Source of the DNA: Patescibacteria group bacterium
GTDB lineage: Bacteria > Patescibacteriota > Microgenomatia > JAMCZE01
Reading direction: 5' to 3'
DNA: 64,000 bases
NCBI GenBank assembly: GCA_023380635.1
Contig: JAMCRP010000001.1
Span: 405,200-469,199, forward strand
The translations under genes and the position numbers were made by a program. The notes under the pieces were generated by a model. The model was given only the letters and a program-made list of their open reading frames with translations. It was not told the origin of the DNA and made no database searches. Within the stretch, counting starts at the first letter, position 1. Each line of letters begins with the position of its first letter. This document shows, piece by piece, positions 18,747 to 41,666 of this stretch.

Positions 18747-20459
18747 ATGGTTAACAACCTGATTAAAAACGGCCGGGATCTTCTCTTTAGGCGCCAAACA
18801 AATATCCTTTCTGCCGCCACGGTTATTGCCGCCGCCGTTTTGCTCTCCCGTCTCCTGGGTCTTTTTAAATACCGTCTCTTGACCGGCCGGTTTTCCGTTT
18901 CGGATATCGGAGTTTTCATTACTGCTTTCCGTTTGCCCAACACCGTCTTTGATCTGATTGTTATGGGCGCTTTGACGACTGCTTTTATCCCGGTTTTTAC
19001 TTCATACATTGCCAAAGATAAAACTGAAGATGCCAACCGCATCGCCTCAACTGTCTTAAATCTGAGTATCCTCATTTTTCTTCTTTTTTCTTTCCTGTTT
19101 TTCGTTTTTACCGACCCGCTGATGCATCTTATTGCCCCGGGCCTGTCGCCACGGGAAATGTCTTTAGCCATTCCTTTCACCCGGATCATGCTTTTGGGCC
19201 AAACCCTGCCGCTCATTTTAGGCAACTTCTTGACCGGAATCCTGCAATCACACAAGCGGTTTCTGGTTCCGGCTCTGGCTCCGGTGGTCTATAACATCGG
19301 CATAATTTTGGGCATTCTTTTCCTGTCGCCGAGTTTAGGGTTGTATGGTGCGGTTTGGGGCGTGGTTCTGGGTGCGTTTCTTTTCATGCTGATCCAGATT
19401 CCCCTGTGCGCCCATTTGGATTTTCATTATCAGCTTAAGTTTGACCTGAGACATCCCGGCGTAACCGAAATCGGCCGACTGATTGTCCCGCGCACTTTGG
19501 GCCTGGCCGTGACCCAGTTGAACTATTTTGCCAACCTGGCTATTTCTTCCTTAATTTCCACCCGGGCGATCACCATCTTTTCTTTTGCCCAGCAACTGGA
19601 ACAACTCCCTATCGGGGTTTTTGCTGCTACTATCGCTCAGGCCGCTTTGCCAACTTTATCTGAAGAACATGGCAAAGATGATAATTTTGCTAACTTTAAA
19701 AAAACTTTTCTTACCTCGCTCCACCAGATTCTGTTTCTGGTTTGCCCGGCCGCGGCCATTCTGATTGTTTTGCGCATTCCGATCGTTCGCCTGGTTTACG
19801 GAGCTTCCAAGTTTGACTGGCCGGCAACTGTCGAAACCGGCCGGACCCTGGCTTTTTTAAGCATTGGCTTAATTGCCGAAGCGGCCATCAATTTATTAGT
19901 CCGGGGATTTTATGCGTTGCATAACAGCAAAACCCCGGTGATTGTGGGCAGCCTGACTGTTTTACTTAATATTGCCCTGTCCTTTAGTTTTATTTTCCTA
20001 TTTCCCATCTGGGGAAAATCGGTTCTCGGTCTGGCTGCCGCTTCCGCCATCGCCGATAGTCTTTACGCCTTAATTTTAATTTACCTGCTTAACCGGGCCG
20101 TCCATTCCTTCGAGCCGCAAGCGTTGCTTTTGCCCGCCGGCAAAATTCTCTTTGCCGCCGCCTTGACCGGTTTTTCCCTCTATGTTCCCATGAAACTTTT
20201 AGACCAGCTGGTTTTTGACACCACCCGCACCGCGCCGTTAATTATGCTTTCCGCCACTGTCAGTCTGATCGGCTTAACCGTTTATCTCTTTTTAACCTGG
20301 GTTCTCCAAATCGAAGAACTGAAGTCTTTCCTGAGCCTGTTTGGCCAGCTCGGGCATGTCTTCTTTGCTGCCGAAGATCAGGTGGAACGGGCGGTTTCCG
20401 ATGTCGTCACCGAGACCGCTCCGGTGGAAATTCCCCCACAAACTCCCGAAGTAAGGTAA
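18747..20459 (+). CDS. murJ: Lipid II flippase MurJ (MviN)
   Basis: 14-TM MOP-superfamily protein with conserved MurJ N-terminus (LLSRLLGLFKYRLLTGRF...FIPVF); 570 aa. Confidence 0.85.
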   Translation: MVNNLIKNGRDLLFRRQTNILSAATVIAAAVLLSRLLGLFKYRLLTGRFSVSDIGVFITAFRLPNTVFDLIVMGALTTAFIPVFTSYIAKDKTEDANRIASTVLNLSILIFLLFSFLFFVFTDPLMHLIAPGLSPREMSLAIPFTRIMLLGQTLPLILGNFLTGILQSHKRFLVPALAPVVYNIGIILGILFLSPSLGLYGAVWGVVLGAFLFMLIQIPLCAHLDFHYQLKFDLRHPGVTEIGRLIVPRTLGLAVTQLNYFANLAISSLISTRAITIFSFAQQLEQLPIGVFAATIAQAALPTLSEEHGKDDNFANFKKTFLTSLHQILFLVCPAAAILIVLRIPIVRLVYGASKFDWPATVETGRTLAFLSIGLIAEAAINLLVRGFYALHNSKTPVIVGSLTVLLNIALSFSFIFLFPIWGKSVLGLAAASAIADSLYALILIYLLNRAVHSFEPQALLLPAGKILFAAALTGFSLYVPMKLLDQLVFDTTRTAPLIMLSATVSLIGLTVYLFLTWVLQIEELKSFLSLFGQLGHVFFAAEDQVERAVSDVVTETAPVEIPPQTPEVR

Positions 20460-20469: not shown

Positions 20470-22230
20470 ATGGATCAAAAGCTCATCCGCAATTTTGCCA
20501 TTATTGCGCACATCGACCACGGAAAATCGACCCTGGCCGACCGATTTTTGGAACTGACCGGCACTGTTGACCGGCGAAATCTCGTGGAACAAACCCTCGA
20601 TACTCACCCGGTTTCCCGACAGCGCGGGATTACGATACGGCTTTCGCCTGTGACCATGAATTTCAAATTTCAAAATTCAAATTTCAAATTGAATTTGATT
20701 GACACTCCCGGCCATGTGGATTTTTCCTATGAAGTCGAGCGCAGTCTGGCTGCTTGCGAAGGGGCGATTTTATTAGTCGATGCCACTCAAGGCATTCAGG
20801 CTCAGACTCTTTCTCATTTTGATAAAGCCAAAAAATTAGGGTTAAAAATTATTCCGGCCATTAACAAAATCGACATGCCCAACACCCGGGTGGAAGAAAC
20901 TATTGCCGAGCTGGCTCAATTAGTCCAATTAGACAAATCCGCAATTTTTAAAATCTCTGCCAGAACCGGAGACGGAGTAAAAGCGTTATTGGAAGAAGTT
21001 ATCAAAAATGTTCCTCCGCCGGCCGGTAATCCTGATGGCCCTACCAAAACTCAGATCTTTTCTTCGCAATATAACCAACAGCGCGGCGTCGTGGCTTTCG
21101 TTAAAGTTCTGGAGGGAAAACTGACCGGCGAGGTCGGCCACTTCACTCCGTTCATGACCCCGGCCCCATATCTCTCTACAGGCGAAGTCGGTTACCTGTT
21201 AACCAACATTAAAGATCCGGAAAAAATCCACCTGTGGGAAGGCTACCAGCCGCCTAAACCCATGGTCTTCGTCAGTTTTTTTCCGGTTAATCAGGATGAA
21301 TTCAATTTACTTGAGGACGCTTTAAAAAAGCTGCGCCTCAACGACGCGGCCATTACTTTTTCCCCTACCAGTTCCAAAGCCTTGGGGCGAGGTTTTCGCT
21401 GCGGTTTCCTGGGTCATTTGCACGCTGAGGTCTCCCAGGAAAGATTAGAAACTGACTTTAATCTCTCAATTATTGCCACCGCTCCGACTGTAGAGTACAA
21501 GATTTTGGGTGACAGCGAGACGAATTCCTTAACTCCGAGCGGCCACCTCGGCGGAGCCGCGAGCCATGAGCCAGAAGCGAATAGCTCGTTTGCAGCGCAG
21601 GAAGTTAAGGATGGTCGAGCTGGCAGGACCCAAAATCTTTGGGCAGAGCCTTGGATCAAAGCAACAATTATTACGCCTCAGGCTTATGTCGGTGCAGTCA
21701 TTACCCTTTGTGAAGAACGCCGGGGAAAACTGATAAACATGGAGTACCACGGCACCGGGGTCACTTTATTTTACGAACTGCCCTTGGCGGAAATCATTAC
21801 CGATTTTTTTGACCAGTTAAAAAGCAAGTCATCAGGCTTTGCCAGTTTTGATTACGAATTCTGGGAATACCGGCCTTTTGACGCCGTACAACTGGTTATC
21901 CTGATTAATCATGAATCTATTGACGCTTTTTCTCAGATGATGGAAAAGACCCGGGCGGAAAAATTCGGAAAGAGAATCGTAGAAAAACTGGCGGAAATCA
22001 TTCCCCGCCAACAAATTCCTATTCCTATCCAGGCAAGTATTAATGGTCAGGTCGTCGCCCGGGCGGACATTAAGTCTTTCCGTAAAGATGTCACGGCGAA
22101 ATTATACGGCGGAGATGTTACCCGGCGGATGAAATTATTGGAAAAACAAAAAAAAGGCAAGGAAAAGATGAAGCAAATCGGTAAGGTCCAAATCCCGGGT
22201 GATACCTTCCTCAAGGTCTTCAAAACATGA
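20470..22230 (+). CDS. lepA: Elongation factor 4 (LepA)
   Basis: AIIAHIDHGKSTLADR (G1), DTPGHVDF (G3), NKID (G4) and LepA-specific C-terminal domain. Carries a heptamer-repeat stretch and a 141-bp GC-rich in-frame segment. Confidence 0.9.
   Translation: MDQKLIRNFAIIAHIDHGKSTLADRFLELTGTVDRRNLVEQTLDTHPVSRQRGITIRLSPVTMNFKFQNSNFKLNLIDTPGHVDFSYEVERSLAACEGAILLVDATQGIQAQTLSHFDKAKKLGLKIIPAINKIDMPNTRVEETIAELAQLVQLDKSAIFKISARTGDGVKALLEEVIKNVPPPAGNPDGPTKTQIFSSQYNQQRGVVAFVKVLEGKLTGEVGHFTPFMTPAPYLSTGEVGYLLTNIKDPEKIHLWEGYQPPKPMVFVSFFPVNQDEFNLLEDALKKLRLNDAAITFSPTSSKALGRGFRCGFLGHLHAEVSQERLETDFNLSIIATAPTVEYKILGDSETNSLTPSGHLGGAASHEPEANSSFAAQEVKDGRAGRTQNLWAEPWIKATIITPQAYVGAVITLCEERRGKLINMEYHGTGVTLFYELPLAEIITDFFDQLKSKSSGFASFDYEFWEYRPFDAVQLVILINHESIDAFSQMMEKTRAEKFGKRIVEKLAEIIPRQQIPIPIQASINGQVVARADIKSFRKDVTAKLYGGDVTRRMKLLEKQKKGKEKMKQIGKVQIPGDTFLKVFKT
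20658..20694. repeat. Heptamer repeat (AATTTCA-type) inside lepA
   Basis: gaatttcaaatttcaaaattcaaatttcaaattgaatttga; encodes MNFKFQNSNFKLNL between G-domain motifs. Confidence 0.65.
21499..21639. mobile_element. 141-bp GC-rich in-frame segment bounded by perfect 11-bp inverted repeats (MITE-like insertion within lepA)
   Basis: AAGATTTTGGG at 21499-21509 and CCCAAAATCTT at 21629-21639. Interior is about 60% GC against about 45% flanking. Length is 47 codons, and LepA here is about 20 aa longer than E. coli or B. subtilis LepA in this loop. Confidence 0.4.
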
Positions 22231-22240
22231 TATTCTGAAA
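22227..22240 (+). promoter_or_regulatory. Conserved upstream motif ATGATATTCTGAAA (copy 1)
   Basis: Identical 14-mer lies 3-4 nt before the start of the 22244 gene and overlaps the lepA stop; second copy at 24487. Confidence 0.4.
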
Positions 22241-22243
22241 GCG

Positions 22244-24484
22244 ATGAAGATCGGTCTGGCCGTTCTTATTTTGCTGTTATTTGTTCTTGTTCCTAAACCC
22301 GTGCTGGCTGATGCCGATTTTTGTCCCGGTCCGGGAAATAATCTCATTGACAATATCAGCCCGCAGGTTCTGGAAAATTTGCATACCAACGCCGGCAGTC
22401 CCAACTGTTGGCTCACGGCTACTTTTCTTCTGCGCACCAACGACCTTTCCAGCCCCAATTTGAAAATTTTTTTCCAGAAAGCGGCGGAAAATAAAATCTT
22501 TCCCATCATCAGAATCGGCACGGAAAATAGCGGTTCTAAATGGCCGGCTTTTACCACCCAACTCGCCCAAACTGACGCGACTTATTTAAATCAGGCCGTG
22601 GCCGCCTCCGGTTTTCCCAAAGAGATTTATGTGGAAATGGGCAATGAAGTAAATGCCGCTGACGAATGGGGCGGTAATCCGAGTCCGGAAAGTTATGCCG
22701 CCACTTTTATTCCGTTTGCCGAAAATCTTTCCGCCGTGAAAATAATGCTGCCCCCTTTAATTCTTAACCCGGCGGCAGCTATCGACTACAACACCTATTA
22801 TCTGAAGCTCAAACAAGCTCTCGACCAGCAACTGTCACAAAAATTCAGCTGCAGTTTGGATATTGATCCTCTCGACCGGTGCCGTCAAAAGATTGACGAC
22901 TGGCTGGATACCAATATTTCCGCTTACGCCTTAAATCTTTATCCACCCCCGGGTGTTGAAGACACGGGACAAAAGACCGGCTATATTTTGGCGGACAAAG
23001 ACAAAGTCCTGAAGGCCTTGCAGGACACAGGCTTTAAAATTGACAGTAAAAAATTTCTCATTACAGAAATTGGTCTGGCCAACGGTGTCTATCCTCCACC
23101 GGCCGGAGAGCAAGCCTGTCATTTTTATCAGGCCATTTTAAATTCCAGCCAGGGAAACAACTTCCTGGCGGCCACTATCTACTCGCGTGATGACCGACTG
23201 CGGGTTCACGCGTACTACTATCCCACCGGCGCTTGTTCTTCCAGTACCGAGTATGACAAAGGCAACGAAAAAAGCGTCATTAATCTTGGCGGCTCAGTTA
23301 CTTATGGTTCCGGTAGTGGCTACCCACAGGATACCAGCATTGTTTATCCTCCTTTGGGTTCTTTAGAGCAATGTCCGGATGCTACCAAGGCCCAAACCAC
23401 TCAAACCTGTTCGCCGACCAACCAACCGGGCAACATTTGTAATTCCGAATGCAGTCCGCCGCTGGAAATTGACCAGAATCTGCAACTTTCCGATACCGGC
23501 AGTTGTTTGACTAACGGCTCAGGCACCTGCTACGCCCAAATTAAAATCCAGGACAATAAGATTCCGGTGCCGGGACAAATCCAGCAGTTGGGCGATTATT
23601 TTGAAAGATTGGTGCCCTATTTTACTTCTCCGACCCAGCAAAACGACTTGCGCTGTAAATTCATTAAATATGTCAAGGACAATCCCAATTCCAAATATAA
23701 AGATCTGAAAATCGACGGGAAACTGGTTTCATCTCTGCCTTGCGATCCGACCCTTGCCGGCTGGTCCCAAATCCCGCTTGTCCCCAATGACGATTCTCTG
23801 GGCAAGATCGAATTTGTCAGTCCCAGTCTGGCCACTGTTCAGCCCGTCACCGTTTCCCTGCCGGAAATCCAACGACTGAACCTCTCCACTAAAATTTTGC
23901 AGCAAGCTCTGGTGCCAACCCAAACCTATCAACCTAAAACCTACGGCAAAGCTATTACTTTAAATTTGGAAAACAACGCCTGTAATCCGACGCCGACCTG
24001 GGAAAATCTTTACGGCGCCGATCTGGATCGGGGCGTCAGCTGTAACTTCGGCAATTTAAAACCGCTGGCCGGGCAAGATAATCTTTCCGGTTGCGTTCTT
24101 TTGCCAGACGGCACTTTGGAATGTCAGCGCAACGAAGCCGGAGGGACTCCGGGTTATCGTCAGGTGGCCGGAGCCCAAGCCACCGTTCAGATCCGCACCG
24201 TTTTCCCCCATCTTTTTGAAGCTTCTGAACAGTCTATTTCCTTCATGCAGGGCTTTTTGCAGCTCTTCCGCCCCGAAGAAGTGGAAAAGTTTAAAGAAGC
24301 CTACACTCCGATTCCGGCTGCGGTCGACGGCGTCAAGTATGAATTAACAGGAAGCTCCGGCCTGGCGATTAATGACGCCGGCCACAAACAAAATGGCTGG
24401 CAGCTGTTTTTCTATAACCTTGGCGGCATCTGGAACGCCCGCAATTTTGTCTTCCAAACTCTCGGTCTGCCGGTTAGCAAGTAG
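22244..24484 (+). CDS. Secreted Cys-rich protein with a possible N-terminal glycoside-hydrolase-like (GH5-like TIM barrel) domain
   Basis: Signal peptide MKIGLAVLILLLFVLVPKPVLA. EMGNEVN and ITEIGL resemble the GH5 acid/base and nucleophile motifs (weak). Many Cys in the C-terminal 400 aa. Start moved to ATG 22244 within track ORF 22199-24484. Confidence 0.45.
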   Translation: MKIGLAVLILLLFVLVPKPVLADADFCPGPGNNLIDNISPQVLENLHTNAGSPNCWLTATFLLRTNDLSSPNLKIFFQKAAENKIFPIIRIGTENSGSKWPAFTTQLAQTDATYLNQAVAASGFPKEIYVEMGNEVNAADEWGGNPSPESYAATFIPFAENLSAVKIMLPPLILNPAAAIDYNTYYLKLKQALDQQLSQKFSCSLDIDPLDRCRQKIDDWLDTNISAYALNLYPPPGVEDTGQKTGYILADKDKVLKALQDTGFKIDSKKFLITEIGLANGVYPPPAGEQACHFYQAILNSSQGNNFLAATIYSRDDRLRVHAYYYPTGACSSSTEYDKGNEKSVINLGGSVTYGSGSGYPQDTSIVYPPLGSLEQCPDATKAQTTQTCSPTNQPGNICNSECSPPLEIDQNLQLSDTGSCLTNGSGTCYAQIKIQDNKIPVPGQIQQLGDYFERLVPYFTSPTQQNDLRCKFIKYVKDNPNSKYKDLKIDGKLVSSLPCDPTLAGWSQIPLVPNDDSLGKIEFVSPSLATVQPVTVSLPEIQRLNLSTKILQQALVPTQTYQPKTYGKAITLNLENNACNPTPTWENLYGADLDRGVSCNFGNLKPLAGQDNLSGCVLLPDGTLECQRNEAGGTPGYRQVAGAQATVQIRTVFPHLFEASEQSISFMQGFLQLFRPEEVEKFKEAYTPIPAAVDGVKYELTGSSGLAINDAGHKQNGWQLFFYNLGGIWNARNFVFQTLGLPVSK

Positions 24485-24486
24485 AT

Positions 24487-24500
24487 ATGATATTCTGAAA
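24487..24500 (+). promoter_or_regulatory. Conserved upstream motif ATGATATTCTGAAA (copy 2)
   Basis: Same 14-mer 3 nt upstream of the pilin P1 start (ATG 24504). Confidence 0.4.
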
Positions 24501-24503
24501 ATA

Positions 24504-25283
24504 ATGAAGAAAATTGTCGGGCTTTTAATTTTTTTCTTAATCATCTTCGCCAAACCGGCCTTGGCTGTTGATACCTGCGACGCAACCCAATACAATAAGA
24601 GCGCAAGCCATCTTGTAGAATGGTTCAAAACCGAAACTCCAAAAAGCTGCCCGTCTGATGAGTGTCTAAACAGCCGTTCAGACCAATTAACCAAAGTGGT
24701 TTTAGAATGCTGGCCAAAAGGGTCGACAACCCAATCACCAGAGTGTTGGCCAGGATGTACAATATTAAATCCCGCAATTCACGCTTCACTTCTGCTTCCA
24801 GGAGTAGGAGGACAAGCATGGCATTGTTACCAAAGTGCAGCAATCCCCGGCTCCATTAATCTGCCGCTGGCAGAGTGTCCCAAGACTAATTGTGGTAGCG
24901 ATGGGCTTTACCAGTATGATAAAAAAAGCGATACCTGCGTTCGAAGGGTAAATACCCCCTGGGACTTGAATACCACTACTTGCCCCGGCGGCGATGTCGG
25001 TGTTGCCACCGCCATTGGCTGCATTCCCACTGGAAACATGGTCGGACCGAGTGGTTTCTTAAGCTTCATTTTGAAATTTGCCCTGGGCATTTCCGGGGCG
25101 GTCATTTTGTTTATGATTATTATGTCCGGCTACACTCTTCTCACTTCCGGCGGCAATCCGGAAAAACTCCAGGTGGTCAAAGAAAACCTGGTCGCGATTT
25201 TTACCGGGCTTCTTATGATTGCTTTCTCCCTGATTTTATTGCAAACTATTGGCGCAGACATTTTGCGCCTGCCGACTTTCTAA
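24504..25283 (+). CDS. VirB2/TrbC-like T4SS pilin paralog P1 with a 190-aa Cys-rich N-terminal ectodomain
   Basis: Signal peptide MKKIVGLLIFFLIIFAKPALA. C-terminal hairpin of two hydrophobic helices joined by TSGGNPEK with a Lys-rich turn, paralogous to the next three genes. Start at ATG 24504 inside track ORF 24372-25283. Confidence 0.55.
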   Translation: MKKIVGLLIFFLIIFAKPALAVDTCDATQYNKSASHLVEWFKTETPKSCPSDECLNSRSDQLTKVVLECWPKGSTTQSPECWPGCTILNPAIHASLLLPGVGGQAWHCYQSAAIPGSINLPLAECPKTNCGSDGLYQYDKKSDTCVRRVNTPWDLNTTTCPGGDVGVATAIGCIPTGNMVGPSGFLSFILKFALGISGAVILFMIIMSGYTLLTSGGNPEKLQVVKENLVAIFTGLLMIAFSLILLQTIGADILRLPTF

Positions 25284-25285
25284 AC

Positions 25286-25690
25286 ATGACCGGAAAAATT
25301 TTGGCTGCGATACCAGAAGACACCGGAGGGGTGCCTTTTACTAATCCTCGGGGCTGGCTGGGCACCCTCGACCCGGGCAACGGCTGGCCCAAAGCCCAGG
25401 GTATTGATTTTTTTACCAAGCAACTCATTCCTTTTCTCATTTCCGGCGCTCTGTTTATTGTTTTTGTTCTGTCACTGATATTTTTAGTCTGGGGCGGTAT
25501 TATGTGGATTACCTCTGGGGGGAACAAGGAGGGCGCCGCCAAAGCCAAAGCCACAATCACTTACGCTTTAGTGGGGTTAATCATTGCTATTTTGGCTTTT
25601 CTCGCCCTGAACATTATTGGGCAATTTTTTGGAGTTAATTTATTAGGTGACCAACCGCCAAGATGTGTTGGGAGCTATTGTAATCTTTAA
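25286..25690 (+). CDS. VirB2/TrbC-like T4SS pilin paralog P2
   Basis: FLVWGGIMWITSGGNKEGAAKAKATITYALVGLIIAIL; start at ATG 25286 inside track ORF 24980-25690. Confidence 0.6.
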   Translation: MTGKILAAIPEDTGGVPFTNPRGWLGTLDPGNGWPKAQGIDFFTKQLIPFLISGALFIVFVLSLIFLVWGGIMWITSGGNKEGAAKAKATITYALVGLIIAILAFLALNIIGQFFGVNLLGDQPPRCVGSYCNL

Positions 25691-25756
25691 CCCTGACTCT
25701 TGACTTGTCCGTGAAAAAGCCTGTATTCTTAATCTATAAACGGGGGAGGTGAAAAC

Positions 25757-26200
25757 ATGAAGAAAAATTTAGTTAAATTTGGAGTTGGAGCAGGAGCCGC
25801 TCTGACCACCCTTTATTGGGGGGTTTTACCGGCGTTGGCCGACACAGTGGGCCTTTGCCCGACTCAAGCTCCCTTTCCGCCCGGATGTGACAACGGAAAA
25901 GCCACTGCAATTAGCGTCGGATCGATTATTTCGTCAGTTTTAAATCTTTTGCTGTTTGTCGCTTTCGTGGCCGCTTTGATTTTCCTGATTATCGGCGGTA
26001 TTAAATGGATCCTAAGCGGCGGCGATAAAGAAGGTACCAGCAAAGCCAAGGAAACAGTCACTTCTGCTTTAATTGGTTTGGCTGTGGTTCTCGCTGCCTG
26101 GATTTTGATTAACATTTTGCTAAGTTTCTTTGGGGTGAGCAGCGGATTAACTGGCCTGACTGTACCAACACTGAATGTTGGCACGGGCACAACTCACTAA
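25757..26200 (+). CDS. VirB2/TrbC-like T4SS pilin paralog P3
   Basis: SD-like GGGGGAGGTG upstream, signal peptide, IGGIKWILSGGDKEGTSKAKETVTSALIGLAVVL. Confidence 0.6.
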   Translation: MKKNLVKFGVGAGAALTTLYWGVLPALADTVGLCPTQAPFPPGCDNGKATAISVGSIISSVLNLLLFVAFVAALIFLIIGGIKWILSGGDKEGTSKAKETVTSALIGLAVVLAAWILINILLSFFGVSSGLTGLTVPTLNVGTGTTH

Positions 26201-26272
26201 TTTTGATTATGGGAATATCTAACCCGCCCGATTAAGGGCGGGTTTTGCGTGGAAATATGCTAGAATAAATTC

Positions 26273-26611
26273 ATGAAAGAGGATTTGAGTCAAGGTTGTA
26301 TATTTACCGGCCAGAGTGTAGGTTCGAACGATATCCCCTCACTTGGTTGTCTGGCTCAAGTCATTGTCAGTGTCATTAACTGGGCTTTCGTTTTTCTCGG
26401 CGCCGTGACCTTACTCATGCTCCTTTGGGGTGCCATCCGTTTTGTCACTTCCGGCGGTGATCCAAAAGCCGTCCAAGGAGCCCAAAAAACCATTACCTAC
26501 GCAATCGTCGGTATTATCGTTGTTCTGGGCGCTTATGTGATCGTCAGCGTGATCACTACCGCCCTCGGTCTTCCTAACCCGCTTCAAAATTTCCGTCTCT
26601 ACCAGCCTTGA
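26273..26611 (+). CDS. VirB2/TrbC-like T4SS pilin paralog P4
   Basis: LWGAIRFVTSGGDPKAVQGAQKTITYAIVGIIVVL; 112 aa. Confidence 0.6.
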   Translation: MKEDLSQGCIFTGQSVGSNDIPSLGCLAQVIVSVINWAFVFLGAVTLLMLLWGAIRFVTSGGDPKAVQGAQKTITYAIVGIIVVLGAYVIVSVITTALGLPNPLQNFRLYQP

Positions 26612-26643
26612 CTTAATCCTTCAAAAATGCCATTCTGAATGTA

Positions 26644-28275
26644 ATGAAAAAGGCCGTTTTTTTTGGCCTGGCTTTAGCAGTTTTATTTTTGACCCCAAAA
26701 CCAGCCCTAGCCAAGACTGCGCCCAGGTCGGGCAGCTGTTCCACAACTTCATATAATTGTATTGCCGGTACCACTGTAGGAAGCAGCACTTGCAACTGCG
26801 ACGCCACCGGTTCCAATTGTTCTTGGTCCAGTGGAACACCTACAGATACTGATGCTCAAAACAATTCGGGTTGTACCGCCACATCAAATTTATATCCAGG
26901 GAGTTACACCTTTTTTAATCCCACTCCCCAGTCTTTTTCTAACGACCTCTATGGTCAAGCCGGAGCCGATGCCGGAACGGAAATAAACAGCTCAAGATGG
27001 GTAAAGATGGTGGCGTCGGATATTGGCCTTTCTATTGCTGCCGATGCCATTGGCTTGCCCGGCCAACCGAACTCCGTTCAAGCTAGTGCTGTAGGTTTTT
27101 TAGCCCGGGGCATTGATACTTTGGCTTTTAATCCGCCGGCTTCATCGATCCAGTATCTGGCGTACATGGGACGGGAGTTCCATGTACCCGGCACCCCGGA
27201 AACCGCTTACGCCGCGGATAATATCGGCGGCGTGGGTTTCAGCCAACTTAGTCCCATTCTCCAGCTTTGGACTATCGCCCGTAATCTTGCCTATCTGGTC
27301 TTTGCCATCATTTTCGTAATTATCGGTTTAATGATTATGCTGCGGGTTAAAATTGATCCCAAAACCGCTGCTACCATTCAAAATTCCCTGCCAAAAATTG
27401 TCATTGCTCTGGTTTTGGTGACTTTCTCCTACGCCATTGCCGGATTTTTGATCGATATCATGTATGTGTTCCTGGCCTTAATTGTAACTTTAATGAGTCC
27501 GGTTGCCGGCGGTAAGGATATTTTGGAAAACCTTCTTAGCGGTAGCATTTTCAACTATGTAGCCAATGGCCAATTCATGGATGTTTCTACCAGTGCCGCA
27601 GCAGCAGTCGGAAACATTGTTAACGGAATCGTTACTGGCATAAGAGGGGGTAATTCCGTACAAGGCTCTGTTTTAGGACTAGTAACCTCAGGACTTGCCT
27701 TCTTAGTTGTTGCTATTGCCATTTTGGTCGCCCTTTTCCGCACCTGGCTATCCTTGATCGGGGCTTATGCCAATATTATTCTGGCCATTATTGGTTCGCC
27801 CTTAATGCTTATGATGGACGCTATTCCCGGTCAAAACCAGTTTAGTGCGTGGCTTCGGAATATGCTCTCCAACCTCCTGGCTTTTCCAGTAGTTTTTGTC
27901 ATGCTAACCATCGGCTCAGCAATCACGACTAATTTAGGGAGCGGCACGGGTAACGTCGGCACCTCAGGAGGCTTTGTTCCGCCCCTTCTCGGCGCCGGGA
28001 ATATGGAAGCAGCTTCCAGTCTTATCGGATTAGGCATCCTTTTAACTATTCCCAAAGCTGTCAATATTGTCCAGGAAATGCTTAAAACCCCGCCGTTTAA
28101 GTATGGCAACGCCTGGCAAGAGTCTCTGACTGCAGGAGCTACCGGTGCTCAGTTTGCTGGCCGAGGAGCCTTGGAACTTGGTAATGCCGAAATTTTGCCT
28201 GGAGCAAGAGAAGGAGCCAGGAGAAGAGGAATTGTACCGGTAGCTACAGGTTGGATAAGGTCTCAGTTTAGTTAG
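26644..28275 (+). CDS. VirB6/TrbL-like polytopic membrane protein with Cys-rich N-terminal ectodomain
   Basis: Signal peptide, Cys/Ser/Thr-rich region, then at least six TM helices in a TrbL/VirB6-like arrangement with a Gly-rich C-terminus; immediately follows the pilin array; 543 aa. Confidence 0.5.
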   Translation: MKKAVFFGLALAVLFLTPKPALAKTAPRSGSCSTTSYNCIAGTTVGSSTCNCDATGSNCSWSSGTPTDTDAQNNSGCTATSNLYPGSYTFFNPTPQSFSNDLYGQAGADAGTEINSSRWVKMVASDIGLSIAADAIGLPGQPNSVQASAVGFLARGIDTLAFNPPASSIQYLAYMGREFHVPGTPETAYAADNIGGVGFSQLSPILQLWTIARNLAYLVFAIIFVIIGLMIMLRVKIDPKTAATIQNSLPKIVIALVLVTFSYAIAGFLIDIMYVFLALIVTLMSPVAGGKDILENLLSGSIFNYVANGQFMDVSTSAAAAVGNIVNGIVTGIRGGNSVQGSVLGLVTSGLAFLVVAIAILVALFRTWLSLIGAYANIILAIIGSPLMLMMDAIPGQNQFSAWLRNMLSNLLAFPVVFVMLTIGSAITTNLGSGTGNVGTSGGFVPPLLGAGNMEAASSLIGLGILLTIPKAVNIVQEMLKTPPFKYGNAWQESLTAGATGAQFAGRGALELGNAEILPGAREGARRRGIVPVATGWIRSQFS

Positions 28276-28277
28276 CC

Positions 28278-29879
28278 TTACCTTTTTCCGCCGCCAAATT
28301 TGATGCCGGTAATCGTGCCGGCTACACCCAAGACATCTTGAAGGGCTCTACTGCCCCAGCCTTTTGCAGCATTCTGGGCAAAATACGAGATAACATCGCC
28401 TCGTATATTCTTTGGTATTTCGATTCCATACATATTTCTGATTTCCTGGAAAAATGCCCTGGAATCGCCGGGTTTGAGAAGTTTTCCAGCCGGCCGCATA
28501 TACTCAGCCATGGTCGATTCCAAAAGAACTATTCCTCCCAGAGTGCTTCTCTTGGCGTTTTCTTTAAGTCGGCCGGTATATTGTAGAGTTACCCGGGCAT
28601 AGTTATCCACCGATTTGAGAGCGGCACCAACCTTGCCAAAATCGCCCAAAGCAGCAATGAAACCCTCCGTCGCTGCCTGGCCCCGCTCTAAGGCTTTAAA
28701 ATAACTTTTTAAACCAATCTTTCGCCCCTCATTGTCGCGCATTTCCTCATCCCGAGCTCCAGCATCAACCAGAGACCAGAGCGCAGGCGGCGCTCCGGCA
28801 GGACGGGATACTGGTACTGCTGAACGGGAGTCAATTTCCTTTTTTGCATAAGACGGTAGATCAAACGCCTCAGAATAGCGCCGCAGCGCTGGCATCATCG
28901 CCTCAGTAATCATTTCTCCACGAACATAGAGAGCATATCGATGGGGGTACATTATGTTCGCCACGGGATCATTTGTTGTCCAGGCGCCAAATTCAATTGT
29001 GTTTTCATCCCAATGTCCGGTCCTCGTATTTATCCGGTTCCAATAGCCCACATAACCTAAGATCTGAGCCAGTTGTAGCGTCATCGCAAATTGATATTCC
29101 GGAATAATCGTGTCCCAGCTGTTGACCCAAGCTGTTCTGGCTGGTCGCCCGGCAAACATCGCTTTCGAAGTCGCCAGCCATCTGGCCTCAATCTCAAAGC
29201 GGTCATCGGGGGCACCGCCATTGGCAATCATAGCAGCGAAAGCTTCTTCTTGCCATTGTTTCGCGTTAGTATCCAAAAAACGGAAAGATTGCTGAACTCC
29301 TCTGGAAAAATAAATTATTTGCGCCAGCTCATCCTCCTTGAACCAGTCTTTGTCCTCCGAACCGGCAGTTACTGCCTTAATGAATTCTCCGGCGTTACCG
29401 TTTGACTGCAGAAAAGCATTATCCAGATTATGTAATTTATGCAAACCTCGGGCTAACCCCAAAATATCCAGATAATCTTGTTCTGACAAGGTCCAAGGCC
29501 GCACTCCGGTTCGAGCCAACTGAGCCCTTTTCTCTAGTTCCTGTGACACTCGAGTGCCGATTCCCTCTGTCAATTTTCCCCGGTTCTCATAAACCGAGCC
29601 GTAAATCATCAAGACCCAGTTAGAAATATCGCGTAAATTGTTTCCTACGGCTTCGGCAGAAAAAATCTTTTCTCCAGTTAAGCCGGTGTCTCGGGGAGGA
29701 AAACCCGCTGCAGTAATCATAGAAGGCATATTTTTAGCCGGTATATCCGGCGGCGTTGCTACACCAATGTAGCTCATCCAATCCGGAGTTTTAGCAGCTA
29801 GGGCATTAAAAACATCTTCTTCCGTTTGTGGTACCGAAGCCCCGAGTCCTGATAAAATTTCGCCAGAAATGCTTGGCAT
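28278..29879 (-). CDS. Hypothetical soluble protein (533 aa) with no recognisable domain
   Basis: No TM helix, signal peptide or Walker motif; last gene of the minus-strand operon converging on the VirB6-like gene. Confidence 0.45.
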   Translation of the reverse strand: MPSISGEILSGLGASVPQTEEDVFNALAAKTPDWMSYIGVATPPDIPAKNMPSMITAAGFPPRDTGLTGEKIFSAEAVGNNLRDISNWVLMIYGSVYENRGKLTEGIGTRVSQELEKRAQLARTGVRPWTLSEQDYLDILGLARGLHKLHNLDNAFLQSNGNAGEFIKAVTAGSEDKDWFKEDELAQIIYFSRGVQQSFRFLDTNAKQWQEEAFAAMIANGGAPDDRFEIEARWLATSKAMFAGRPARTAWVNSWDTIIPEYQFAMTLQLAQILGYVGYWNRINTRTGHWDENTIEFGAWTTNDPVANIMYPHRYALYVRGEMITEAMMPALRRYSEAFDLPSYAKKEIDSRSAVPVSRPAGAPPALWSLVDAGARDEEMRDNEGRKIGLKSYFKALERGQAATEGFIAALGDFGKVGAALKSVDNYARVTLQYTGRLKENAKRSTLGGIVLLESTMAEYMRPAGKLLKPGDSRAFFQEIRNMYGIEIPKNIRGDVISYFAQNAAKGWGSRALQDVLGVAGTITGIKFGGGKR

Positions 29880-29888
29880 AAGAGCATT

Positions 29889-30620
29889 TTAACACACGCC
29901 TAGATAAATCTCTCCACAGTGTTTACACCGGTAGCCTTTGGTAATCCAATCATTAATTTCTTTTCCGCAGATTCCACAGGCGCGGGCAAAAACTTGGATT
30001 TTTCCATCGGGTCCGATCCGCTTCTGGGTAACTTCGACTGCCTTTGGGCAAGCTTTATCAATGTCTACCCCCTCTTTTTTCAAAAAATAAGCCTTTGGGT
30101 CATTTTGATGCTGAATCTCTTCAACTTCCTGATTAAACTTTATTTCCGCCTGGTCGTTTCGGATACTTTCCCAGATAACCGACATGGGAATAACCTCTTC
30201 AAGTATCTTCGGGTCCGGCAAAAAATAATAGCCCTCACGGGAAAATCCGGCTAAGGAAGTTATAAACGAGGCAAAATCCCGGCCGGAAAAGGTCTGGCCA
30301 GTAATGTCATATTCTACAATCTGATTTCCTTCTCTTATCGCCACCAAAATTTTTCCCCGGTTATAAAAACTATCCGGAGGGCTCAGCCAAACCCCGGTCC
30401 CCGAATTTTTTTGCAATTCGTTAAGCATGGCCAAATTAACTTGGGTTTCCCGCTCTTCCCGATGGTTGTGGGCCGCAAAAGTTTGTTCAATCCTTTTTCC
30501 GGAAAGCGGGTCAACAATTCCCAAATTGGTGAGATTTAGTCTAATAACCGAGGTGTTTAAACCGGGAAGAAGCTCATTTTTAGCAGAGACGGCGTTAACG
30601 GCTTCAAGACGGGAAATCAT
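29889..30620 (-). CDS. Hypothetical protein with C-terminal zinc ribbon
   Basis: CGICGKEIN...CKHCGEIY CxxC-x-CxxC at the C-terminus; 243 aa. Confidence 0.45.
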   Translation of the reverse strand: MISRLEAVNAVSAKNELLPGLNTSVIRLNLTNLGIVDPLSGKRIEQTFAAHNHREERETQVNLAMLNELQKNSGTGVWLSPPDSFYNRGKILVAIREGNQIVEYDITGQTFSGRDFASFITSLAGFSREGYYFLPDPKILEEVIPMSVIWESIRNDQAEIKFNQEVEEIQHQNDPKAYFLKKEGVDIDKACPKAVEVTQKRIGPDGKIQVFARACGICGKEINDWITKGYRCKHCGEIYLGVC

Positions 30621-30730
30621 ATCTTGCTCGAGACGGGCAGATTGCTAGTTTTCCGGCTTTAACGGTTGCGGCACAGCGTCGGAGTTACACCGACTTCCTT
30701 AAACACAATCCAGGGTTAATATGCCAAATC

Positions 30731-33520
30731 CTAGGGGATATTGCAATACTGAGGTTTGGCAGTTGACCAAGCCTTCCATGTCTGACCGTTATTTGAAAGC
30801 CTGGCTGCAGCAGCAGCATTGTGATCGTCTTGCCTCCAATAGTCCGCACATTGCTTTAAAAGATTCTCATCTCTATCACAAGCATCGCCGCAATCTTTGC
30901 CACAGTAAGGTTTTAAGAACGGATTTTTGCCACCAGGAATTTCTTTACATAAATAATCATGGGCGAATAAATTAATTTGGAAAATGCCGACGCTGTATTC
31001 GTTGTGACGATTAGTTCCATCGTTGCAGCCGTCGTTCGTTTTGGTACTCTTACCACCGGATTCCCTATAACAAATTCTCGAAGCATTTTCGACCTGATCA
31101 CTAGTAAAAGTTGATGAGAGATTAGCTACAGAACAGGCGTTGCCAATTGGCGCTACTGGACAGCGACTGGCCGTGTAGTTCGGACTGCCGACCGCTACCG
31201 TTGCTTCAGCGGTCAGGGTTTCTTCTTTGTCGCCCGCTTTGACCGTTACGGTAGCTATATTTACCAAATTGCTGTTATTGTCCGCAGCCGTTGTCGTGTA
31301 GGAAGTCATCACCGTTGTGGAATCGCCCTTTAGGACGGTTGGCGGAAAAACCGGATTGGCTGACAATTTCAACGGCGTGCTGGCATTATTTTCCCGGGTA
31401 AACTTATCGTCAACCTTAACAATGCTGATATCGTTATCTTTTCCGGCAGTAATTTTAAGGGAAAAGGTTACGGTAGCACTCGTCCCCCCGGCAACCGAAG
31501 TTTGATCAACGGTTTTTTCCAGCGTAAATAAAGTGCCTTCCTCTTTGCTTAAATCCGCCTGCTGAGAAGTCGCGGCCACGGTGCCAAAAGCCGTCCAGGT
31601 CGAAATAACCACTACCAATGAACCGACAGCGGTTGCCGCCACCGAAGCGATTACCGGAAGAGCTCCGCCACCTAACAAAGATGTGAGCGACAGCCCGCTA
31701 ATGCCCAAAAAGCCGCCGGACGCCGCTGCTCCAACCGCGCCCGTCCCCGTTCCCAAAGCTCCCGCGCCACCAATTGTCGCCGCGCTGGCCACTGGAGCCG
31801 TAGCTACGGCCGACCCGAAACCCGCCCCGAAACCAAAAGAACTGCTCACAACATAACCAATGGCTGCTCCCGAAACTCCTCCCAAACCAAAACCGATTAG
31901 GCTGCCGATTGGTCCGCCTGCCAGAGCTCCCAGAGCCATTCCGGTCAGCGCCCCGGCCGCGCTGAAGCCGATCACTATGGCGTTTGAAAGCAAAGCTTGG
32001 ATAAAAACATAGACGGCTAGACCGGTCCCGACACCAGCATTAAGCATTAAGTCCCGCATTTCTTTGCTGGAGAGCAGTTTTTTGACCAGTTTGGCTCCTT
32101 CCCAAATTAAGCCAATGGCGGCTATGACCTGGCCCGCGCCGGGAATTGCTCCCAAAGCACCTTTAATCAGCATTCCCCACGACTTCTTTTTGATTTCGCC
32201 GGTAACAACCTTGCCGGTTTCTTTCCCGGCTTTTTTTAAACTCTCCCCGCCCACTTTACCGGCCAACTTCAGGTCTTTTTTAGAAACAAACCGCCCGGTC
32301 AGTCTTTGCCATATATTTTGCGGTTTAGCCGGCGGGGGGGTAAGCGTTTCCGGCGGAGTAGTAACCGGCTGTTCAGTCTTACTTTTACTAAATGTTCGTT
32401 CCCAGGAACCGACAAAAAAATCTCTAAACCAGGGCACCAGAAGTGATGGACTGTGCACTACGGCCCGCCAACTAAGCTGCCTGGCGCCAATTTCTTCCAG
32501 GGTGCGACGTTCCTGAGCTTGGACCACCGATCCCGGCTTTGTCTGTTCAACTGACTTTTTCTCCGGCACCGGAGTTTGAACAATGCGCTCGCCGGACGCT
32601 ACTCCAATTGGCTGCTCTTCCTGCTTTTTTTTGGCTTCTTCCTCCTCCAGTTCTACAGCCCTTTGAGCGTCGCGGGCCGCGTTTTTCTCAGCCTCAGCAG
32701 TTGCCAGGCCGGGTTTGTCCAGCCAACGCTCCAAATAAACCGCGTATAGCGCCTGGAAACGATCCATTCGGTGCTTAGCTTCACTCTGCTGGTTATCCAA
32801 TCTTGCTTTTTGGGCTTTTAGTGACTCCAGAAGGGTTTTATCCGGCTGTTTAAGAAAAATAACATCACTCAGGTTGACACCAACTAAATTCCGCAGTCCT
32901 GCTTCATACTTAGCTAATAACTCCTCTAGGGCTAAATATTCCTCCCGAAAAATGTTGATAATAACCGGCCAGTTCTGAGTTTCAAAAGCTGGTTTATACT
33001 CCGGCGCCTTGCCAATTTTTGGCGGCTTTCTTTTAATGACATGATCAAATAAAAATTCTTCGAAATTAGCCTGAGATTGCTGTTGGGAAGTTTGGCTTTG
33101 ATTTGTTCCGACCCTTAGTGCATTTACCCAGTCGACAATAGCATTGTCTAAATTAACTGTTTCTATATATGACGCCCTAGAATCCATTAGAAGTGCGGTC
33201 GTGCCATATATGGCATCTGGCGAATGGTCTTTTGCCAGAATATAGGCTTTTTCCAATTCGGCTAATTGTTCACGAAGTGCCTCGATGCCGGAAATCAAAC
33301 CTTCCCCAATCGCCGCCCCAAAAGTAGCTTGCAGCAAAGCCTTCTCATGATCGGCCCGTTCCTTGTCAAAGTATGCCTGTTGCCCACTAACCTTTTTTTC
33401 TTCAGCGGCCAATAGAACATTAACCCCGGTATTCGAATCATTCAGGTCATGTTCCAACCTATCAATATCCTTTTGCAATTGCGCTTCATACGAACCCAAA
33501 ACAGGTTCAACATCGGCCAT
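30731..33520 (-). CDS. Large multidomain membrane protein: N-terminal coiled coil, Gly-rich multi-TM block, Ig-like/DUF11-like beta domain, C-terminal lysozyme-like (C-type lysozyme/SLT fold) peptidoglycan hydrolase domain
   Basis: 929 aa. The C-terminus (CYRESGG...EYSVGIFQIN...CADYWRQ...TWKAWSTAKPQYC) parallels the hen lysozyme pattern (DYGILQINSRWWC...AWVAWRNRC). The middle is GxxxG-rich and hydrophobic; the N-terminal 350 aa is a charged coiled coil. Confidence 0.55.
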   Translation of the reverse strand: MADVEPVLGSYEAQLQKDIDRLEHDLNDSNTGVNVLLAAEEKKVSGQQAYFDKERADHEKALLQATFGAAIGEGLISGIEALREQLAELEKAYILAKDHSPDAIYGTTALLMDSRASYIETVNLDNAIVDWVNALRVGTNQSQTSQQQSQANFEEFLFDHVIKRKPPKIGKAPEYKPAFETQNWPVIINIFREEYLALEELLAKYEAGLRNLVGVNLSDVIFLKQPDKTLLESLKAQKARLDNQQSEAKHRMDRFQALYAVYLERWLDKPGLATAEAEKNAARDAQRAVELEEEEAKKKQEEQPIGVASGERIVQTPVPEKKSVEQTKPGSVVQAQERRTLEEIGARQLSWRAVVHSPSLLVPWFRDFFVGSWERTFSKSKTEQPVTTPPETLTPPPAKPQNIWQRLTGRFVSKKDLKLAGKVGGESLKKAGKETGKVVTGEIKKKSWGMLIKGALGAIPGAGQVIAAIGLIWEGAKLVKKLLSSKEMRDLMLNAGVGTGLAVYVFIQALLSNAIVIGFSAAGALTGMALGALAGGPIGSLIGFGLGGVSGAAIGYVVSSSFGFGAGFGSAVATAPVASAATIGGAGALGTGTGAVGAAASGGFLGISGLSLTSLLGGGALPVIASVAATAVGSLVVVISTWTAFGTVAATSQQADLSKEEGTLFTLEKTVDQTSVAGGTSATVTFSLKITAGKDNDISIVKVDDKFTRENNASTPLKLSANPVFPPTVLKGDSTTVMTSYTTTAADNNSNLVNIATVTVKAGDKEETLTAEATVAVGSPNYTASRCPVAPIGNACSVANLSSTFTSDQVENASRICYRESGGKSTKTNDGCNDGTNRHNEYSVGIFQINLFAHDYLCKEIPGGKNPFLKPYCGKDCGDACDRDENLLKQCADYWRQDDHNAAAAARLSNNGQTWKAWSTAKPQYCNIP

Positions 33521-33555: not shown

Positions 33556-35241
33556 ATGTATACTAGACGTATGCCCGAGCATGCCACTTTTTTTGGTCAT
33601 GCCGCCAGTTTCGACTCGTTTCAGGTGGTCGCGCCGGATTTTAACGCGCTGCACAAAATCGAAAAAACCATTGAACAGTCGCCCCAAAGCGCTCCGACAG
33701 AATTGATTGATTCCGTTCCGAACACTCATTTACTAATTGCCAAAATTGACGGCGATGTTTTGGAAGTAGCCGCAACGAACGGCATGAGAGCCAAACTCTT
33801 CCGCGGCGGAAAGATTATTAATCTTCTCCTGACTCCGGGAAAAATTGCCGGCCATATTAAAAACGGGGACATTCTGGTTTTGGGAACTGAAGATTTTTTT
33901 AATAAGATTTTTAGTTCCGAGAATGTCCATAATCCTGAAGAATTATCTCTAAAACTGGAAGGCCTGGAAGATAAAGACAATGTTGCCGGTTTAATTCTGA
34001 AACTGGACAATGTTTCTTTGGATACTAGTCTCCGACCCCCATTATCCAGCCCTACCAGTTCTCCTCGCCGCCCGCTGTTCCCCTCCAGTTTTGACCGGCC
34101 AAAAATCTTAACTCAAACCCCTTCCAAGCGCACGCTTTACGGTGCCGGGGTCATTCTGGTTTTTCTGATTTCGCTTATCGCCTTTCAGCTGCGCGGCCGT
34201 AATCTGGAACAGCGCACTCAAAACGCCGCGGTGATCGAAAAACAGGCCCGGGACAGTTTGAATCAAGCCTCTAACTTTGCCGGGCTGAACGACAACATGG
34301 CCAGAAACACTCTCATTACCGCCAAAAATAATTTCCTGACCCAGGCCCAAACGGATTTTGGCCCCAACTGGCAAAAAGACCCAAGCCCGGAAACTAAAAA
34401 GTTGCAGGCGGTTTTAGCCGATTTGGATAATCAGCTGGCCCAGGTTTCGCATATTTATAATTTATCCGCCCTGGATCTTTTTTCTGATTTCAGTCTACTG
34501 CGGGCCGATGCTAACATTACTGCTGCTTCTCTAGACAAAAACGAAATTGTTGCCCTGGATTCCAATAACGGCGCCGTTTATTCTCTCGGCACCAAATCAA
34601 AAACGGCAGCCATTGTCGGCGGCGCTGCGGATTTTAAGAGTAACAATTATATTGATGCGACGGCCGACACCGTTTATGTATATACACCATCCGGAATTGA
34701 AAGTATTAACCGGACCACCAATTCCGTCAAAGTTTTATTGCCTTTATCAAGTGATTTTGTCAAAATCCGGGGCCTCAAGACTTTCGGGGGAAACTTATAT
34801 CTTCTGGACACCGACGGTTCGCAAATTTGGAAATATCAGGGGACGGATTTTGGTTTTTCGGCCTCGCCCTCGGCGTATCTTCGCGCCGGTTCCGCTGACT
34901 TTACCAATGTGAATTCTTTTGCCATTGACGGCACCATTTTTGTTTTAAGTAATAGCGGCAATGTGGCCAATTTTTCCGGCGGCTACGCGCAGGATTTTAG
35001 CGTTTCCGGTTTAGACAAACCCCTGAACAACCCTACTAGCATTTTTACTTCCGACGAAACCAATAATTTGTATATTCTCGATTCCGGCAACAACCGGGTC
35101 GTCGTTTTAGATAAAAAAGGCAATTATCAGGCCCAGTATGTTTCGCCGGATATTAAGGGCAGCCTCATTCTTGCCGACGAAACCGTAAAGAAGGTATTTT
35201 TGCTTTCTGGGGCAAAAGTCTATTCCTTTGATCTCAAATAG
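33556..35241 (+). CDS. Membrane protein with N-terminal degenerate PP2C-like domain, one TM helix and a C-terminal beta-propeller (NHL/YVTN-like repeats)
   Basis: VAATNGMRAKLFRGGKI and NGDILVLGTEDFF resemble late PP2C motifs. TM helix LYGAGVILVFLISLIAF. Repeated beta-strand-rich C-terminus ends in YILDSGNNRVVVLD (NHL-like). Confidence 0.4.
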   Translation: MYTRRMPEHATFFGHAASFDSFQVVAPDFNALHKIEKTIEQSPQSAPTELIDSVPNTHLLIAKIDGDVLEVAATNGMRAKLFRGGKIINLLLTPGKIAGHIKNGDILVLGTEDFFNKIFSSENVHNPEELSLKLEGLEDKDNVAGLILKLDNVSLDTSLRPPLSSPTSSPRRPLFPSSFDRPKILTQTPSKRTLYGAGVILVFLISLIAFQLRGRNLEQRTQNAAVIEKQARDSLNQASNFAGLNDNMARNTLITAKNNFLTQAQTDFGPNWQKDPSPETKKLQAVLADLDNQLAQVSHIYNLSALDLFSDFSLLRADANITAASLDKNEIVALDSNNGAVYSLGTKSKTAAIVGGAADFKSNNYIDATADTVYVYTPSGIESINRTTNSVKVLLPLSSDFVKIRGLKTFGGNLYLLDTDGSQIWKYQGTDFGFSASPSAYLRAGSADFTNVNSFAIDGTIFVLSNSGNVANFSGGYAQDFSVSGLDKPLNNPTSIFTSDETNNLYILDSGNNRVVVLDKKGNYQAQYVSPDIKGSLILADETVKKVFLLSGAKVYSFDLK

Positions 35242-41653: not shown

Positions 41654-41666
41654 ATAAATAATCTTG

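Follow-up and report, generated by a model that had tools for sequence, protein, structure and literature searches.

A predicted cobalamin-class riboswitch in a probable envelope and pilus locus of a Patescibacteria-type type IV secretion system

Type IV secretion systems (T4SSs) of Patescibacteria have been described from Southlakia epibionticum ML1 (Wang et al. 2023) and from a larger set of genomes (Quinonero-Coronel et al. 2025, PMC12102498). Their role was called 'completely unknown' in 2024 (PMC11665869), and in the one species tested the system is essential for epibiotic growth. A survey of 3,035 Patescibacteria genomes recorded VirB4 in 2,417, and of 1,948 assemblies only 1,135 have pilin genes close to virB4; in Microgenomatia, virB4 is found abundantly near dnaA/dnaN, pilin arrays are common and VirB6 is 'scarce' (PMC12102498). 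Here we describe a related locus in a 64,000-nucleotide stretch of contig JAMCRP010000001.1 (assembly GCA_023380635.1, Patescibacteria group bacterium), which we call the window. Between 22.2 and 35.2 kb, in a chromosomal background, two convergent gene sets encode pilins, a VirB6-like protein, a putative peptidoglycan hydrolase and two proteins of no recognized family, the latter pair preceded by a predicted cobalamin-class riboswitch. We consider it likely that this locus is the envelope and pilus half of a Patescibacteria-type T4SS (monoderm and derived from the mating-pair formation class MPF-FATA) in a Microgenomatia-like genome, with the motor encoded elsewhere.

An initial annotation of the window had outlined a T4SS-like envelope cluster at this site, and an open reading frame (ORF) check found all of its ORFs in place. 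The features of the locus are as follows, where the gene after the 243-aa gene is termed the slot.

22244-24484, plus strand: secreted Cys-rich protein, 746 aa from ATG, with a signal-peptide-like N-terminus and 18 Cys; first gene after lepA
24504-25283, plus strand: pilin 1, with a signal peptide, a Cys-rich ectodomain of ~170 aa and a C-terminal hairpin of two transmembrane (TM) helices; PF18895 27.5 bits
25286-25690, plus strand: pilin 2, 134 aa, two-TM hairpin with an SGGN loop motif; PF18895 26.7 bits
25757-26200, plus strand: pilin 3, 147 aa, signal peptide and two-TM hairpin; PF18895 38.3 bits
26273-26611, plus strand: pilin 4, 112 aa, two-TM hairpin; PF18895 35.8 bits
26644-28275, plus strand: putative platform protein, divergent and VirB6-like, 543 aa, with a signal peptide, an ectodomain of ~180 aa and long hydrophobic helices
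28278-29879, minus strand: slot protein, 533 aa, soluble and all-alpha, with a disordered N-terminus and a basic C-terminal tail
29889-30620, minus strand: cytoplasmic Zn-ribbon protein, 243 aa, with an invariant WxSPP and a C-terminal CxxC...CxxC zinc ribbon
30639-30711, minus strand: predicted cobalamin-class riboswitch aptamer of the adenosylcobalamin (AdoCbl)-II type; RF01689 38.8 bits against a threshold of 36.5
30731-33520, minus strand: 929-aa envelope scaffold and predicted peptidoglycan hydrolase; PF18896 (SLT_3) 30.1 bits against a threshold of 27
33556-35241, plus strand: NHL-protein neighbour, 561 aa, PF01436, divergently transcribed

Of the 54 ORFs that reach 150 aa, our Pfam scans covered 40, among them all that reach 400 aa, with thresholds of 26.6 bits for PF18895 (T4SS_pilin) and 27 bits for SLT_3. 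All four ORFs that had been proposed as tandem VirB2/TrbC-like pilins pass the former. Their hairpins are mutually 23-50% identical, with 50% between pilins 2 and 3; Patescibacteria pilin paralogues show a mean identity of 25% and a maximum of 54% (PMC12102498). Pilin 3 also gave weak matches to TrbC/VirB2 (PF04956, E 0.02) and to the pilin-like family NF045849 of Mycoplasma integrative conjugative elements (ICEs), and pilin 4 is 63% identical to the pilin that adjoins the VirB6-like gene in L001 (labels L001-L043 denote the related loci compared with the window). Pilin 1, whose true start is 24504, is an 'extended' VirB2-like pilin with orthologues of 269-368 aa in L004, L005, L007, L008, L009 and L010, which stand first in the array wherever its start is covered. 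A large first pilin is also present in L011, where a bAvd/23S_rRNA_IVP gene (19839-20195, minus strand), encoding an accessory protein of diversity-generating retroelements, adjoins it amid the Daviesbacteria pilin genes; such a retroelement might diversify a pilin ectodomain in that locus.

Preceding the array, the secreted protein of 746 aa was found to be secreted and Cys-rich as first described, and the glycosidase label then attached to it rests on motifs, with no match in Pfam, NCBIfam, PHROG or the PDB. Its N-terminal half carries GNE and TEIG motifs reminiscent of clan GH-A glycosidases; GNE and (T/V/S)E(I/M/L)G are kept in three homologues. A conserved Cys-rich domain takes up the C-terminal ~350 aa, and homologues occupy the equivalent position in L004, L008, L009 and L010.

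Directly after the pilin array, in the window as in all relatives compared, lies the gene of the 543-aa protein. TM prediction gave at least six TM or hydrophobic helices following a Cys-rich N-terminal ectodomain. Neither this protein nor five homologues matched PF04610 (TrbL), and a profile built from 104 homologues retrieved no VirB6 of the PDB by sequence. The best structural matches of its AlphaFold model were TrwI/VirB6 and DotA, so the VirB6 likeness is drawn from structure comparison and not from a family hidden Markov model (HMM); on this modelled basis the protein has a predicted VirB6 fold. The earlier description as a VirB6/TrbL-like polytopic protein was therefore borne out for topology and fold and failed at the PF04610 HMM. 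Unlike the pilins, this ORF fails the T4SS HMMs, yet it matches no unrelated family either. The family numbers at least 470 members, shows invariant residues and may represent the 'scarce' VirB6 of Microgenomatia. Upon alignment, the first two TM helices (aa 201-279; 27244-27480) resemble the pilin hairpins, with 17.5 bits to PF18895 and 23-24% identity over 57-68 residues, which suggests that the platform protein begins with a pilin-like hairpin.

The minus-strand operon opens with the 929-aa protein. It consists of a cytoplasmic coiled coil (aa 1-450), a Gly-rich multi-TM segment (aa 454-640; nt 31601-32161), an immunoglobulin-like region and a C-terminal lysozyme-like SLT_3 domain (aa 804-920; nt 30761-31111), in which the YRESGG Glu-Ser catalytic motif is intact at aa 818. 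The lysozyme-like C-terminus reported before is thus confirmed, and the VirB1-like role then suggested fits a cell-wall hydrolase in the cluster, as predicted from SLT_3 and the Glu-Ser motif. Orthologous scaffolds in L001, L003, L008, L010 and L013 end in Peptidase_M23 instead of SLT_3; since the scaffold is conserved and its tip differs, the hydrolase domain has been swapped. A protein with a SpoIID domain flanks the pilin array in two relatives (L007, 4764-6551, minus strand; L012, 19251-20930, plus strand). SpoIID is a peptidoglycan lytic transglycosylase, so that, across lineages, three cell-wall hydrolase types (SLT_3, M23 and SpoIID) are associated with the module. Divergent from the scaffold gene, the 561-aa NHL protein has a cytoplasmic N-domain, one TM helix (aa 194-212) and an extracellular beta-propeller of NHL repeats; its homologues hold the equivalent divergent position in L001, L003, L008, L010 and L013 and lie nearby in L007.

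No T4SS motor gene accompanies these components. A six-frame scan returned LepA as the only Walker-A protein within 22-35 kb and, elsewhere in the window, two UvrD-type helicases, an exonuclease and a few short ORFs. The absence of a Walker-A T4SS ATPase, which the initial annotation had pointed out for 22-35 kb, therefore holds throughout the 64 kb. Pfam detected no VirB4, VirD4 or VirB11 domain in the scanned ORFs of the window, and VirB3/PrgI, TrsD and VirB4 from a relative had no tblastn match in the 64 kb.

Comparison with related loci revealed two architectures. In the split form, present in whole or in part in L001, L003, L004, L005, L008, L009, L010 and L013, the order (pilN-S20-)murJ-lepA-(secreted protein)-pilins-VirB6-like converges on slot-(243-aa family)-(hydrolase scaffold), which in turn is divergent from NHL protein-smpB. 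The gene order first noted in the window thus recurs in relatives. In the contiguous form, seen in L007, L011 and L012 (Daviesbacteria and other Microgenomates), dnaA-dnaN-...-virB4-trsD(TraC-like)-prgI is divergent from riboswitch-243-aa family-slot, which converges on VirB6-like-pilins. Because relatives have the contiguous form, the window is read as a rearranged version whose motor operon was separated. We also collected 33 further metagenome loci by means of the 243-aa family. Among these, prgI lies directly upstream of and divergent from the 243-aa-family gene in 18, 16 of which also carry trsD and virB4, and a VirB6-like gene follows convergently in four (3-kb flank). This recurring placement beside prgI-trsD-virB4 makes the two no-family genes regular members of Microgenomatia T4SS clusters; the two proteins singled out at the outset as having no recognizable family are accordingly both without family and conserved in such clusters.

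These comparisons bear on whether the locus is a stand-alone adhesion or pilus module, in which pilins, VirB6-like protein and hydrolase would work independently of an ATPase of the VirB4 type. Such a module would account for the missing ATPase here, for the absence of VirB4 and any other T4SS ATPase within 10 kb in the split loci that extend that far (L005, L008 and L010), and for the stable inheritance of the arrangement across several genomes. However, most other Microgenomatia loci have the homologous genes directly adjoining prgI-trsD-virB4, and dispersed T4SS islands are documented in Rickettsia (PMC12102498). We regard a stand-alone module as unlikely; of the two alternatives posed initially, comparative genomics favours motor genes elsewhere.

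A decaying remnant of a T4SS cluster, left after virB4 was lost or relocated, would likewise lack the ATPase, and relatives' arrays do carry toxin-antitoxin, AAA_14 and Fic insertions. Against decay, all ten locus genes are intact and their order is conserved relative to L008, the closest full-length locus, at 25-59% identity (32-59% without the 243-aa protein); the SLT catalytic motif, the invariant residues of the VirB6-like family and the riboswitch are all kept. We judge a remnant to be very unlikely.

Insertions of selfish or defence-type genes recur in the relatives, in or beside pilin arrays and also between the 243-aa gene and the slot, and none is present in the window. The types are Fic with MerR, AAA_14/DUF4143, HepT, an NTP_transf_2/Polbeta nucleotidyltransferase-domain region, NYN, ParE, PhdYeFM with PIN, and AbiEii; two small inserts of L007 (PIN-like and helix-turn-helix-like ORFs) were called by inspection only. 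The insert coordinates are given by locus.

L004: 3536-4558
L007: 16042-16752
L008: 5269-6441 and 8844-9980
L009: 2271-6489 and 13870-14384
L011: 11107-11763
L013: 8704-9453

The most surprising result concerns the 110 nt that separate the 929-aa gene from the 243-aa gene. An Rfam scan placed here an aptamer that covers model positions 1-81 (the full model) with an E value of 1.1e-5 over the whole window, ending 18 nt before the ATG of the 243-aa gene, the first gene 3′ of it. At the Rfam threshold, an aptamer of the cobalamin clan precedes the 243-aa-family gene on the same strand in 22 of 40 loci: besides the window, these are L007, L011, L012, L013 and 17 of the 33 metagenome loci, with matches to RF00174 or RF01689 of up to 71 bits; leaders of the RF00174 type, such as that of L023 (2800-2941), are longer than the 73 nt of the window aptamer. 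Seven more fall just below threshold (L003, L008, L022, L037, L038, L041 and L043). The distance to the inferred start codon is about 10-120 nt in the other loci, and no further cobalamin match reached the gathering threshold elsewhere in the ~360 kb of DNA scanned. Four of eight predicted pairs, in two hairpins, show compensatory changes among four AdoCbl-II-type sequences. As judged from sequence and covariation, a cobalamin-class riboswitch is present and its position is conserved. The initial annotation had the genes of the minus-strand operon right and missed this element. Our literature search returned no paper tying cobalamin riboswitches to CPR (candidate phyla radiation) T4SSs, and neither the riboswitch nor the Zn-ribbon family nor the hypervariable slot is mentioned in PMC12102498 or PMC12857230.

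Neither gene downstream of the aptamer encodes a protein with a family match in Pfam, NCBIfam or PHROG, nor with a signal peptide or TM segment. The 243-aa family numbers 122 members in Daviesbacteria and Microgenomates, and its comparison with the PDB gave nothing meaningful. The slot gene ends 2 bp from the convergent VirB6-like gene. An AlphaFold2 model of its 533-aa product is all-alpha at moderate confidence and had no informative fold match, and only four true homologues were found among 1.84 billion representative sequences. In every locus compared, the slot product is large and soluble (505-1456 aa) and has no TM segment or signal peptide. Using jackhmmer and hhalign, we found no homology between the 533-aa family and slot proteins elsewhere, apart from a faint collinear resemblance to the one in L008 (E 0.0045). 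The VirB6-like proteins of L008 and L001 are 59% and 47% identical to that of the window, yet the slot protein is unrelated in L008 and 41% identical in L001. Similarly, L013 combines a 243-aa protein 52% identical to ours with a slot protein of the L010 family, and two Daviesbacteria loci share VirB4 at 86% identity with slot proteins that barely align (19%, E 0.006). By these comparisons, the slot evolves far more rapidly than the genes around it. Net charge over the 12 C-terminal residues of slot proteins averages +1.7, compared with -0.15 ± 0.38 for 12-mers drawn at random from the same proteins, in a set that includes a few non-slot ORFs and with C-termini being somewhat basic in general; this is a weak hint of a possible shared C-terminal signal.

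The classical targets of cobalamin riboswitches are genes for B12 uptake, for B12 biosynthesis or for isozymes that work without B12. The main rival for the 243-aa and variable pair is hence an operon for cobalamin salvage, binding or trafficking that is merely lodged between T4SS operons, in keeping with these B12-related targets and with two sequences that do not resemble a T4SS component. Yet the pair sits between the prgI-virB4 and the VirB6-like/pilin operons in both architectures, even among proteins only 23-52% identical; unrelated proteins taking its place in different loci would be unexpected for a metabolic enzyme or B12-binder; and both proteins lack the signal peptide or TM segment that a transporter would need. 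A cobalamin operon is possible, if on the doubtful side. The other explanation, that the slot protein is a T4SS substrate or host-specificity factor and the Zn-ribbon protein its adaptor or chaperone, is speculative and we hold it with similar doubt.

Under the T4SS reading of the whole locus, the plus-strand operon is probably read through from murJ-lepA. A scan for promoter-like sites gave 25 against 14.9 ± 3.3 expected from shuffles and one for terminator-like sites gave fewer than chance, and we consider both scans uninformative. The PrgI/VirB3-TrsD-VirB4 motor operon would lie elsewhere in the genome, most likely near dnaA. A VirB4 hexamer with PrgI/VirB3 and TrsD would pull pilins from the membrane and build them on the VirB6-like base, while the extracellular SLT_3 tip of the scaffold would open a local passage through the peptidoglycan; the extended pilin 1 or the secreted Cys-rich protein may serve as tip or adhesin. 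When cobalamin is abundant, the riboswitch would repress the Zn-ribbon and slot genes, most likely at translation given the 18 nt between aptamer end and ATG, and the Zn-ribbon and variable proteins would be linked to the T4SS. Extended to physiology, this gives a Microgenomatia T4SS wired to vitamin B12 status, in which scarce cobalamin would lead to delivery of a diversifying, signal-less substrate to the host by means of a Zn-ribbon adaptor. Scarcity would mark an unattached or starving epibiont, and the substrate would serve to set up or make use of the association with the host, perhaps as a source of corrinoids. We put this B12 scenario forward tentatively and with considerable doubt.

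Several points weigh against the T4SS reading and its extension. The VirB4 of the source genome is deduced from relatives and not seen, the DNA examined being the 64-kb window. The margin of the window aptamer over the Rfam threshold is only 2.3 bits, which taken alone is borderline, and the roles of the 243-aa and 533-aa proteins are inferred.

The flanks of the locus are housekeeping genes, with pilN, murJ and lepA upstream and tmRNA, smpB, comF, dnaG and rpoD downstream. The two genes that directly precede the locus are:

18747-20459: murJ, upstream flank
20470-22230: lepA, upstream flank, with a Walker-A motif at 20506

This setting bears on whether the locus is part of an ICE or another mobile element. 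T4SS genes are typical of ICEs, and NCBIfam returned weak matches to Mycoplasma ICE proteins. Conversely, no relaxase, coupling protein or integrase was found among the ORFs scanned by Pfam, and a repeat scan found no bounding repeats. The GC content of the locus is in line with that of its flanks, and pilN, S20, murJ and lepA on one side and smpB (joined by tmRNA and comF where these are seen) on the other are shared by divergent genomes. We therefore consider a mobile element extremely unlikely. A PHROGs search with the ten locus proteins returned nothing, which leaves a phage origin unsupported.

Type IV pilus genes lie just upstream of murJ-lepA, namely PilN (PF05137; 17791-18342, minus strand) and an adjoining 215-aa ORF (region 17160-18342). 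The pilO-pilN-S20-murJ-lepA context recurs in L010 (1-832), so in this lineage genes for type IV pili adjoin those for the T4SS envelope. Downstream, directly 3′ of the NHL-protein gene and beside smpB (35666-36175), we found the tmRNA gene (35239-35622, minus strand; RF00023, 97 bits), which ARAGORN did not call. An 867-aa ORF rich in Pro, Glu and Ala (38105-40708, plus strand) belongs to no family except for a weak TolA-like match and lies where the AT skew peaks sharply (+0.27). At 41579-41916 (minus strand), tRNA-Arg and tRNA-Ser genes alternate in a tight group of four, followed by a 181-aa SLT/Transglycosylase-like protein (42024-42569, plus strand) just upstream of dnaG.

The 533-aa, 543-aa and 929-aa products are identical to the GenBank hypothetical proteins M1403_02450, M1403_02445 and M1403_02460 of a 559-kb contig (accession run MCL4397868-71 for M1403_02445-02460), and named homologues come from Microgenomates and from Gottesman-, Levy-, Shapiro- and Daviesbacteria, which makes Microgenomatia the probable home of the organism. 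Neither the M1403 prefix nor GCA_016204245, the assembly of L003, occurs in the supplements of PMC12102498.

Among known systems, cobalamin riboswitch regulons (RF00174/RF01689, clan CL00101) share with this locus an aptamer that fits the models, covaries and lies in the 5′ leader before the start codon. Unlike in those regulons, the downstream genes here are not recognizable as B12 transport, B12 synthesis or B12-independent enzyme genes. With respect to the conjugation machineries, the TrwI/VirB6 pentamer is the base for VirB2 pilus assembly in the R388 Trw and Agrobacterium VirB stalk (PMC9259494). R388 TrwI/VirB6 and Legionella DotA resemble the 543-aa protein in having long helices that are mostly hydrophobic and in being encoded beside pilin genes; the 543-aa protein differs from R388 Trw, Agrobacterium VirB and DotA in having no sequence similarity to them and an extra N-terminal Cys-rich ectodomain. 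VirB5, VirB7, VirB9 and VirB10 of R388 Trw and Agrobacterium VirB have no counterpart here, and the envelope is monoderm. PrgK (pCF10), TraG (pIP501) and TcpG are, like the 929-aa protein, T4SS-encoded and membrane-anchored with an extracellular peptidoglycan-degrading domain, but the 929-aa protein differs in its cytoplasmic coiled coil of ~450 aa, its multi-TM Gly-rich segment and its single SLT_3 domain. Scattering of T4SS genes in chromosomal islands is also seen in Rickettsia, and tandem variable virB2 paralogues in Anaplasma and Bartonella (PMC12102498). Those three differ from the present case in being diderm MPF-T systems of intracellular pathogens. To our knowledge, no riboswitch control is known for their T4SSs.

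Taken together, the evidence assigns the system to the Patescibacteria T4SS described in recent work, as a variant that is split from its motor and has a VirB6-like family invisible to profiles, a swappable hydrolase, a riboswitch and a hypervariable gene. Like the systems of S. epibionticum ML1 and of the larger survey (PMC12102498), it is monoderm, chromosomal and without a relaxase. Divergent arrays of VirB2-like pilins (PF18895), a VirB6-like protein and VirB1-like or M23/lysozyme hydrolases are shared, and the pilin identity of 23-50% falls within the range reported for them. It differs in that virB3, trsD and virB4 lie apart from the genes for pilins, VirB6-like protein and hydrolase and in that existing profiles do not detect its VirB6-like family. 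A T4SS can thus be split, with pilus and envelope genes far from those of the motor, and the riboswitch in the cluster is a concrete candidate regulatory input. The hypervariable slot, paired with the conserved Zn-ribbon protein, offers candidates for substrates or host-specificity factors; if the B12 scenario is true, these would be the first candidate effectors, and the riboswitch the first regulatory input, for the Patescibacteria T4SS.

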